The notes beneath the pieces were generated by a model, which saw only the letters and a list, made by a program, of their open reading frames with translations, was not told the DNA's origin and did not search any database. This document shows positions 13,209-16,200 of a stretch of DNA of 64,000 nucleotides, one piece after another. The translations under genes were made by a program, and so were the position numbers. Position 1 is the stretch's first letter. Each line of letters starts with the position of its first letter. This stretch comes from Lama guanicoe (lineage: Eukaryota): positions 2,320,485-2,384,484 of the forward strand of contig MU053431.1 in the NCBI GenBank assembly GCA_013239625.1, read 5' to 3'.

Positions 13209-16200
13209 TCACGTGAGGGCGGGGTGGCGGCGCCTGCCAACGGCACCCAGCTTCTCCTGCAGGGTGGCGAAGTCCGGCCGCTCCTCAGGGCTCCCCTGCC
13301 AGCACTGCAGCATGAGCGCATAGACCTCGGCGGGGCAAGCAGCCGGGCGCGGCAGCCGGTACCCTCGCATAATCTGCTGCAGAGTCTCCTGGTTGCTCAT
13401 TCCTGGGGAGGGGGATAAGGGGCTGGGTGGGGGCTGCCTCGCCTCTGCCTGGGGTCACCGTGGAGACCTCCCCCCAGCCATCGGCCAGACCCTGCCAAGC
13501 AGGCAGCCTTGAGGCCTGGAGCCCCTTCCAGGGTCAGTGACCCCCGGGACAGGGGCACCTCTTGCTTCGGGCTGGCTCCCGCGCTTCCTCCCTCAGACTA
13601 CGCCTCGCCTCTGGCCTTGAGGCCCACCTTCGTAGGGACACTGGCCGTAGGTGAAGACTTCATAGAGCAGAACTCCGAAGGACCAGACATCCGACTTCTG
13701 GGAGTACAGGCAGTAGTGGGCTGCCTCAGGTGCCGTCCACTTGACAGGGATCTTGGAGCCACTGCTCGGGGAGTAGATGTCGTCCTGGGTGAGGCAAGAC
13801 CAGCCAGGCAGTGGGCAGAGTGGCACCCTCCCCTCCCAGCCGCTCGGCCGCCCCACCGTGGTCCACGGCCAGAGCTCACCCTGACCTTGAGCAGCCGGGC
13901 CAGGCCAAAGTCAGCCACCTTGCAGGCCAGGTTGTCGCCCACGAGCACGTTCCTGGCAGCCAGGTCCCTGTGCACGATGCGCCGCTCCTCCAGGTAGCTC
14001 ATGCCCTCGGCCACCTGGCAGGCAAAGGTCAGCAGGAGAGGCGGGCTCAGGGCCTGGCCTTCGGGGCCTGCAGGCAGGGCCGACAGTCAGGGCGCAGGCA
14101 TCTGCCCGTCACTTCCCTCCATGCGCCAGTCTAAGACGGGGCGGAACAGCACTGCCCACCGAGGCTGCTGAGGGCTCTGTGCTGCCGCAGTGACCCCACG
14201 GGCAGTGGCCACTTGGAGCAGGCGGCTCTGTGGCAGCCTGGCCTGGGTCAAGAAACGGACCAACATTGGGAGGGGGCGCCCAGGGCTGGGCGGGGCCCCC
14301 GCTGACATTGTCCAGGGCTGGTGACATGGAGGCCCGCCCCATCTGCATCCCACCCAGCCCAGAACACAGTGCCCAGACCCCAGCCCGACCTCGCACGTGG
14401 CCAGAGCCCACCACGGCCATCCGAGCCTCAGACGATCGAGCGTCCAGGATAGAGGCCTGGAGCGCAGTCAAAGGCAGGCACGAGCCCAGGCTGGAGTCCT
14501 CGTCCCCTCCGCAGACACTCACTACCCAGGAAGGCCTGCAAGCTGCCCCTACGCATGAGCTCAGTGACGATGTACACCGGCGCGCCCACGGAGCACACCG
14601 CATGTAGCCGGATGAGGCGCTGGTGCCTCAGGCTCTTGAGCGTCCGGATCTCCTGGGCGAGATCGGTGAGCTTCAACCCTCCCCCATGCTCTCCCACCCC
14701 AGGCCCTGGGGGGCCCCCGCTCCTCCCCTGTGCCCCCCCACCCCAGGCTCCGGGGGCCCCATCCACCTGGTTTGATGACCTTGATCGCCACTGGCACAGA
14801 GCCCAGCCACAGGCCTTCCCACACCTCCCCAAAGTAGCCTTCGCCCAGCTTCCTCTGCAGGGTGAACTCAGAACGTGGCCGCTCCCACTCGTCCTGCTCG
14901 GGGGTGGGGGGCACTCAGCACCTCTGCACGTGGCTCCTGGGCAGAGTGGGCACTTCCTCCCAGGGTGCCAGGTCTCCCACCCTCTGCCCCTGCATCCCAG
15001 CTCAACCCTGGTCTTGGGTGGGGTAAGTGGCCCAGCTGCTGACCTCCCCAGGCTTGGCCCTAATTGCTTCCGGACCAAAGTGGCACCTTTGCTGGCGGTA
15101 GGCATCAGCTCACAAACACTCATCACCACCCGTCTTGGCTGTCATTAAGAGACCAGAGGAACCAGATCGCCGCCTGGCCCCTGGCAGGACTGCTCGCCCA
15201 GGATGGTTGCAGAGACACTGTGGCCCCAGTGCAGGTGTGGCATGGTCCCTCCCGCATCCCCCACAGCCTCCGCATTGGCCTGGGGCTGCTGTAGGCACCT
15301 TCCCCAGACTTGTCCCTGCCCTCCTGGTGCTCTACTGCAGAGCTGGGCAGTGGGAGAGGGCACCCTACAGGCCTCCTCTCCCCCTATGCCAGGGATCCCC
15401 TGAGATGGTGAGAGCAGACCCAGCCCCAGGGCAAGGCCCCAGCCAGAGTGTGGAGGAGGCAGTGGGACACCTGAGCAGCACCTGGCCCAGGCCAGGCCAG
15501 CCGGATGTGCTCCGGGCAGCATCTCAGGCCTGGCGAGGGGCAGCCTGGCAGGTGGGTGGTCAGTGGGCTTACCTGGGGCACACAGGGCTGGATCAGCTGC
15601 CAGTGGACCTTGTAATAGGCCAGGAGCTCCTCCAGGCTGGGGAAGAGCTGGTCCTTCTGCAGGTAGAGGCTGCCGTCGGCTGCCGTGGAGATGCGGTAGT
15701 GGTGGACTTTGGCCTGGGCCCGGACTTGGGGGCACAGAGAAGGAGGCTGTGTCTTGGCTGCAGCCCGCCCTAGGCTGTCCCAGCACCCCAACCAGATGAC
15801 CCACCCAACCCTCCTCGGGGCCCGGCTCAGCCCCCGCCTTGCGGCCCTGAGATGATTGCAGCTGCGTGGAGGCCACAGGGGCAGTGGGAGGGCCGGGGGG
15901 TCCCTGCTGACAGTGTGCACAGAGCAGGTGCTCAGTGGATACTCGGGGGACAAACGAGTCCACATGTGGGTGGAGGAGCGGGGGAGCGGCAGGGTGAGTG
16001 AATCGAGGTGAAGGGACCAGTCCAGGGGTGAACGGGTGGGCAAGCACGTGAGTGAGTGGTGACGGGAGAATGGGTGAGTGTGTAAGTGAAGAAACACATG
16101 CGTGCGGGGGCGGGGGATGGGTTCGCCAGGCCCGTGGTGGCTTAGGGGCTGCCCTGCCTGGGCAGCAGCCACCCAACAGCCGGGGCAGTCAGCCTGGCGG

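Follow-up and report, generated by a model that had tools for sequence, protein, structure and literature searches.

A missing splice acceptor at exon 5 of SRMS in a Lama guanicoe assembly, possibly the product of faulty assembly at a G-rich repeat and not of gene loss

The window, that is, the whole 64,000-nucleotide stretch of DNA that was analyzed, contains the following genes and SRMS exons.

4333–10732, minus strand: PTK6, eight coding exons with open frames; AG/GT ends were seen for seven
13209–20032, minus strand: SRMS, eight coding exons, placed by tblastn with alpaca, camel, and pig proteins and by an exon model
20032–19671, 16359–16238, 15724–15573, and 14893–14767, minus strand: SRMS exons 1–4
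14681–14523, 14067–13886, 13784–13628, and 13402–13209, minus strand: SRMS exons 5–8, 14681 being the orthologous position of the exon 5 start
22491–24134, plus strand: long, apparently whole open frame matching DUF5581
26158–37442, minus strand: HELZ2 (interferon-induced helicase/exoribonuclease), broken many times

The DUF5581 frame at 22491–24134 sits at what we take to be the FNDC11 position. Comparison of the 31951–28869 part of HELZ2 with tenrec HELZ2 revealed at least three frame changes and at least seven stops, and the RNB match in this gene contains three stops. Being broken so many times, HELZ2 was useless as a gauge of local assembly error. The ab initio model EPY87819.1 of the wild camel, which covers a 312-residue piece of HELZ2 with 89% identity, leaves the frame too, and its sequence hints at a family-wide loss of HELZ2 in camelids. 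In the part available, an alpaca paper still counts HELZ2 among the annotated genes and ascribes a stop variant to it (PMC10873959), and camels are not mentioned in the accessible part of a HELZ2 paper (PMC10516660). The broken HELZ2 may be a more promising lead in the window than the SRMS lesion.

With the orthologous exon 5 boundary, the SRMS model has 484 codons without internal stops, and 472 of its 484 residues match alpaca XP_015099373.3. Three of the 12 differing residues lie at the exon 4–5 junction, and four of the nine others are also unlike those of the wild camel and dromedary. Substitutions unlike both alpaca and camels are E131G, S138A, and V148I (alpaca numbering) in exon 2 (16238–16359, minus strand) and D353N in exon 6. 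The eight coding exons, the SH3–SH2–kinase order, and the adjoining PTK6 place the gene among the BRK-family kinase genes, and an eight-exon layout is described for the BRK/PTK6 family in the accessible text of PMC10220380. SRMS of alpaca and Camelus has the same eight exons, domain order, PTK6 neighbor, and shortened linker between the SH2 and kinase domains. This linker has 11 residues in the window and in 11 of 11 long camelid models and 20–21 in 36 of 51 others, so it is 10 residues shorter in camelids than in most mammals. The shortening comprises a 15-nt loss in exon 3 (15573–15724, minus strand) and a 15-nt shift of the exon 4 acceptor (exon at 14767–14893, minus strand) to an in-frame CAG; relative to other mammals, this acceptor is displaced inward by 15 nt in all camelid SRMS models. 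The end of exon 6 (13880–13886, minus strand) has tandem donors 6 nt apart, of which the second is used by the annotated camelid X1 isoforms and adds two residues.

The features surrounding the exon 4–5 junction, all on the minus strand, are listed below.

14767–14893: SRMS exon 4, with the glycine-rich loop and the VAIK lysine
14761–14766: intron 4 donor, GTGGAT
14676–14766: intron 4 remnant, 91 nt, 58% G, no pyrimidine tract
14678–14760: 44-nt G-rich unit, 1.9 copies, 82% alike
14677–14744: G-quadruplex (G4) consensus motif, ending 1 base from the break
14679–14707: three cryptic AGs that keep the frame, for exons starting at 14678, 14690, and 14705
14675–14676: breakpoint, mapped by a contig of run X5
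14523–14675: rest of exon 5, with the alphaC glutamate, beta4–5, gatekeeper, and hinge, by alignment with the Fgr kinase

The original prediction that exon 5 has no normal 3′ splice site proved correct: the AG is absent at the orthologous exon 5 start (14681), and only 6 of the 20 bases upstream of it are pyrimidines, compared with 12–17 of 20 at the six other SRMS acceptors. The donor that closes exon 4 at 14767 is normal (CAG/GTGGAT), the exon 5 donor GTGAGT at 14522 is intact, and the other six SRMS introns have canonical AG/GT ends with the reading frame whole elsewhere; neither another stop nor a frameshift or further splice defect was detected within the gene in the window. The remainder of exon 5 is 100% identical to the alpaca protein over the query, the first residue excepted, and in a protein search with this exon alpaca SRMS ranked first and the Bactrian camel second. 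The first codons of the exon had been predicted to be replaced, which is true inasmuch as the camelid codons A-D-M read G-G-L in the window, but the residues lost are these and not the A-N-M expected from human. The break was mapped to 14675/14676, where at least 24 nt are missing, namely at least 18 intron bases (tract and CAG) and the first 6 bases of exon 5, in agreement with the predicted removal of tract and acceptor by a deletion. Relocation of the acceptor was ruled out, as the missing letters gave 0 matches elsewhere in the window and the assembly. The DNA search of the own genome revealed no second copy of exon 5, only the SRMS locus and the PTK6 paralogue being matched. With no N bases anywhere in the window, the join itself is clean; the 24 letters lost do not duplicate the left flank, so simple repeat collapse has no support there. 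The hairpin potential at the junction was not unusual (z = −1.2).

At most 0.2% of the window's 91-nt stretches match the intron 4 remnant in G content. Its description as an approximately 85–90 nt, G-rich and tract-free sequence was borne out, but its short length, taken originally as a sign of truncation, is not one: in read-through ORFs from public contigs, intron 4 measures 81 nt (pig-type, with an exon 5 identical to that of pig), 85 nt (dog-type), and 107 nt (cat-type). Among the metagenome matches listed, four loci had 49–54% identity and were not SRMS orthologues. Neither the 25 + 25 matches nor four exact look-ups included a camelid read-through ORF with a whole intact intron 4; consequently, the deletion length remains a lower bound. 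A camelid intron built like that of the pig, with one 44-nt unit added, would put the deletion at about 30–40 nt.

Taken as it stands, the sequence allows the splicing outcomes to be computed, and those given in the original prediction were reproduced. Retention of intron 4 shifts the frame and leads to a TGA at 14561–14563 (minus strand), codon 323, and the retained-intron message is predicted to undergo nonsense-mediated decay. Skipping of exon 5 preserves the frame, as the exon is 159 nt, and gives a product of 431 residues without alphaC, gatekeeper, and hinge; from the sequence, the loss of the alphaC glutamate, gatekeeper, and hinge is predicted to kill the kinase. The in-frame AGs for exon starts 14678, 14690, and 14705 were found again, two of them being GAG and the third leaving a 61-nt intron, and the 20 bases upstream of these starts contain 4, 10, and 6 pyrimidines, respectively. 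Another in-frame AG, for exon start 14747, leaves a 19-nt intron, which cannot be spliced. The one RNA run aligned (X15) left the exon 4–5 junction uncovered; its only contig lies in intron 5, shows 8 differences, and ends at the exon 5 donor.

The state of the junction in relatives was assessed in protein models and sequencing runs. All 11 long camelid SRMS models compared (alpaca, dromedary, Bactrian, and wild camel) read IKVIKPADMKLTD across the exon 4–5 junction, and the junction length was normal in 62 of 62 long SRMS-like proteins, 55 of which fit the strict pattern while 7 differ by substitutions only. Since the camelid models need the A-D-M codons in DNA, those genomes carry letters absent from the window, and the intact junction ruled out a camelid-wide SRMS loss. 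Four runs were aligned to 14250–14800 (X1, X2, and X5 of DNA and X15 of RNA), and one of the three DNA runs, X5, reached the break; X2 ended at 14635, and X1 aligned nothing. The X5 contig, derived from another animal, shows 0 differences from the window over 14250–14675 (426 nt). Past the break it reads, on the gene strand, CTCTGCTCTGTCCTGCAG followed by CCGACA, which corresponds to a pyrimidine tract and a CAG leading into the A-D-M codons, and it terminates 24 bases past the break. Pyrimidines occupy 12 of the 15 positions before the CAG in this intact allele, which is a normal tract; in run X5, the normal acceptor is carried on the same haplotype as the window. In this contig-level comparison, the join was found in none of the contigs compared and the ancestral allele in one. 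None of the four runs yielded contigs over 14676–14800, a gap that the contig filter may explain, so no weight was given to it.

When 24 runs were matched to 14350–15050, the best 14 of them (13 DNA and one of unknown kind, from seven studies and with four organism labels) contained 0.89–0.92 of the 73 words sampled from the window, and none reached 1.00. Of these words, about 3 should cross the join, with a chance of about 3% that sampling missed them all, and 6 words were absent from the best runs; a further private difference may therefore exist nearby. Loss of the whole intron remnant would give about 0.82 of the words, indicating that most of the remnant is genuine.

Allelic and phylogenetic comparisons addressed the constraint on SRMS. 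Run X2 contains two exon 5 haplotypes differing at 4 of 125 bases (14511–14635), and all four differences of the second haplotype are synonymous (P ~0.02 for transitions, given that 41 of the 112 possible transitions in exon 5 are synonymous), by which exon 5 looks to be under constraint. So deep a split between alleles is expected given the admixture of South American camelids. A tree of 19 SRMS proteins (a single one for each species, excluding isoforms and partial models) gave the camelids a path of ~0.10 from the even-toed ancestor, versus ~0.12–0.18 in pig and ruminants, and the alpaca branch was 0.026 versus 0.025 for camels; faster SRMS evolution in camelids was thus absent on this tree. 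The synonymous allele differences and the lack of a long camelid branch indicate that SRMS is a working gene in the family. Considering these results, the original proposal of a young pseudogene or hypomorph found no support for the species or the family, as the junction is intact in all 11 camelid models and in the same-haplotype contig and no second lesion was found; the branch lengths and synonymous exon 5 differences oppose it further.

In our judgment, the chances are even that the at least 24 bases missing at SRMS intron 4/exon 5 reflect an assembly error at the G-rich repeat and not a lost gene. Coverage or quality would have dropped at the G-quadruplex motif and the two sides would have been joined a few tens of bases short, in which case the animal would produce a normal SRMS of 484 residues. 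The break does lie at a G4 and repeat motif, the X5 contig ends shortly past it, and the assembly is of the scaffold type, with a 109-N gap in one of 20 neighboring 10-kb stretches. This N run (L018:333-441), located ~74 kb from the window start, is the sole one in 200 kb of flanks. What counts against an assembly error is the clean join, the absence of the missing letters from the rest of the assembly, that word-graph assemblers normally require reads across a join, and that the remainder of SRMS and all eight PTK6 exons are free of errors. According to the available part of PMC10519405, Illumina, HiFi, and ONT sequencing all show more deletion errors where G4 motifs occur, although that text concerns read errors and not 30-base mis-joins in assemblies as proposed for SRMS. 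The original prediction had itself allowed for an assembly collapse; an assembly fault reads slightly better. The clean, gapless join and the error-free flanking exons would fit a real rare deletion allele, present in one or two copies in the sequenced animal as an unremarkable loss of function in a dispensable gene, which we regard as quite possible while stopping short of calling it probable. G4 motifs favor real deletions too, and since a new deletion arises on an existing haplotype, the identity with X5 is compatible with such an allele, whose message would likely be intron-retaining (stop at codon 323) or exon-skipped (431 residues). SRMS knockout mice are viable and fertile, as stated in the accessible part of PMC10220380. 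A rare allele is disfavored by the lack of an indexed run containing all words of the window, and weakly by four of four negative exact look-ups of deletion-specific ORFs, as the 82-residue ORF of the intact form was also unfound. Because the run index is partial and contigs drop rare alleles, failure to find the join in other data carries little weight for the source animal.

We see next to no chance that the deletion has become fixed or widespread in a single species or population of South American camelids, with SRMS a young unitary pseudogene there. The single-copy gene at its usual place adjoining PTK6, the nine other residue differences from alpaca (of which four set the window apart from wild camel and dromedary too), and the 10-residue shorter linker shared by camelids agree with such a loss, but none of the best runs, spread over four organism labels, has all words of the window, the same haplotype has an intact acceptor, no second lesion was found in the gene, the exon 5 allele differences are synonymous only, and the alpaca branch (0.026) is like that of camels (0.025). 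It is just as hard to believe that a real deletion is rescued by the GAG at exon start 14678, leaving a hypomorph in which A-D-M is changed to G-L in the beta3–alphaC loop. Such splicing would be in frame, with an 88-nt intron, 483 residues, and no early stop, the altered residues would fall in a loop according to the Fgr alignment, and the kinase, one residue shorter, would possibly be active. The camelid exon 4 acceptor represents a similar earlier loss, likely rescued by a downstream CAG, but this precedent retained its tract (12 of 20 pyrimidines), whereas only 4 of the 20 bases upstream of 14678 are pyrimidines, and among acceptor triplets GAG is the least common. In favor of rescue, SPF45 allows splicing of short introns whose tract is truncated, as far as the available text of 10.1101/784868 goes. 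There is a slim chance of a genuine deletion that is widespread in some unsampled South American camelid population, which would then comprise the first natural SRMS-null mammals. Such nulls would stem from a deletion at a G-quadruplex edge in a kinase gene whose linker was already 10 residues shorter, two genes from a dead HELZ2.

A scheme for validating apparent gene-inactivating mutations in single assemblies is described in the accessible part of PMC7671337. Like the cases seen there, SRMS shows one lesion that removes a splice site in a single-copy gene with conserved gene order and no working duplicate; unlike validated gene loss, the lesion is not shared with sister species and, judged by the gene model, the tree, and the allele differences, is accompanied neither by further lesions nor by relaxed constraint, so it does not qualify. 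Unlike the window, the annotated camelid SRMS models all have the pyrimidine tract of intron 4, its AG, and the 6 nt that open exon 5. A search of the literature by title and abstract start found nothing on SRMS loss or lesions in camelids. The lesion is real in the sequence, absent in every relative checked, and ordinary under both leading readings. With a real allele in the homozygous state, the animal would be nature's counterpart of the Srms knockout mouse; the mouse null is viable, fertile, and without a clear phenotype in the part of PMC10220380 available, so little would follow. An assembly error, the reading put at even chances above, would mean caution in calling gene loss from one GC-rich, subtelomeric-type assembly. 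A real private allele would be one more loss-of-function variant in a gene with a viable, fertile mouse knockout. It would gain in weight only with a deletion common in a population, since homozygous animals would then naturally lack a kinase whose role is poorly understood.
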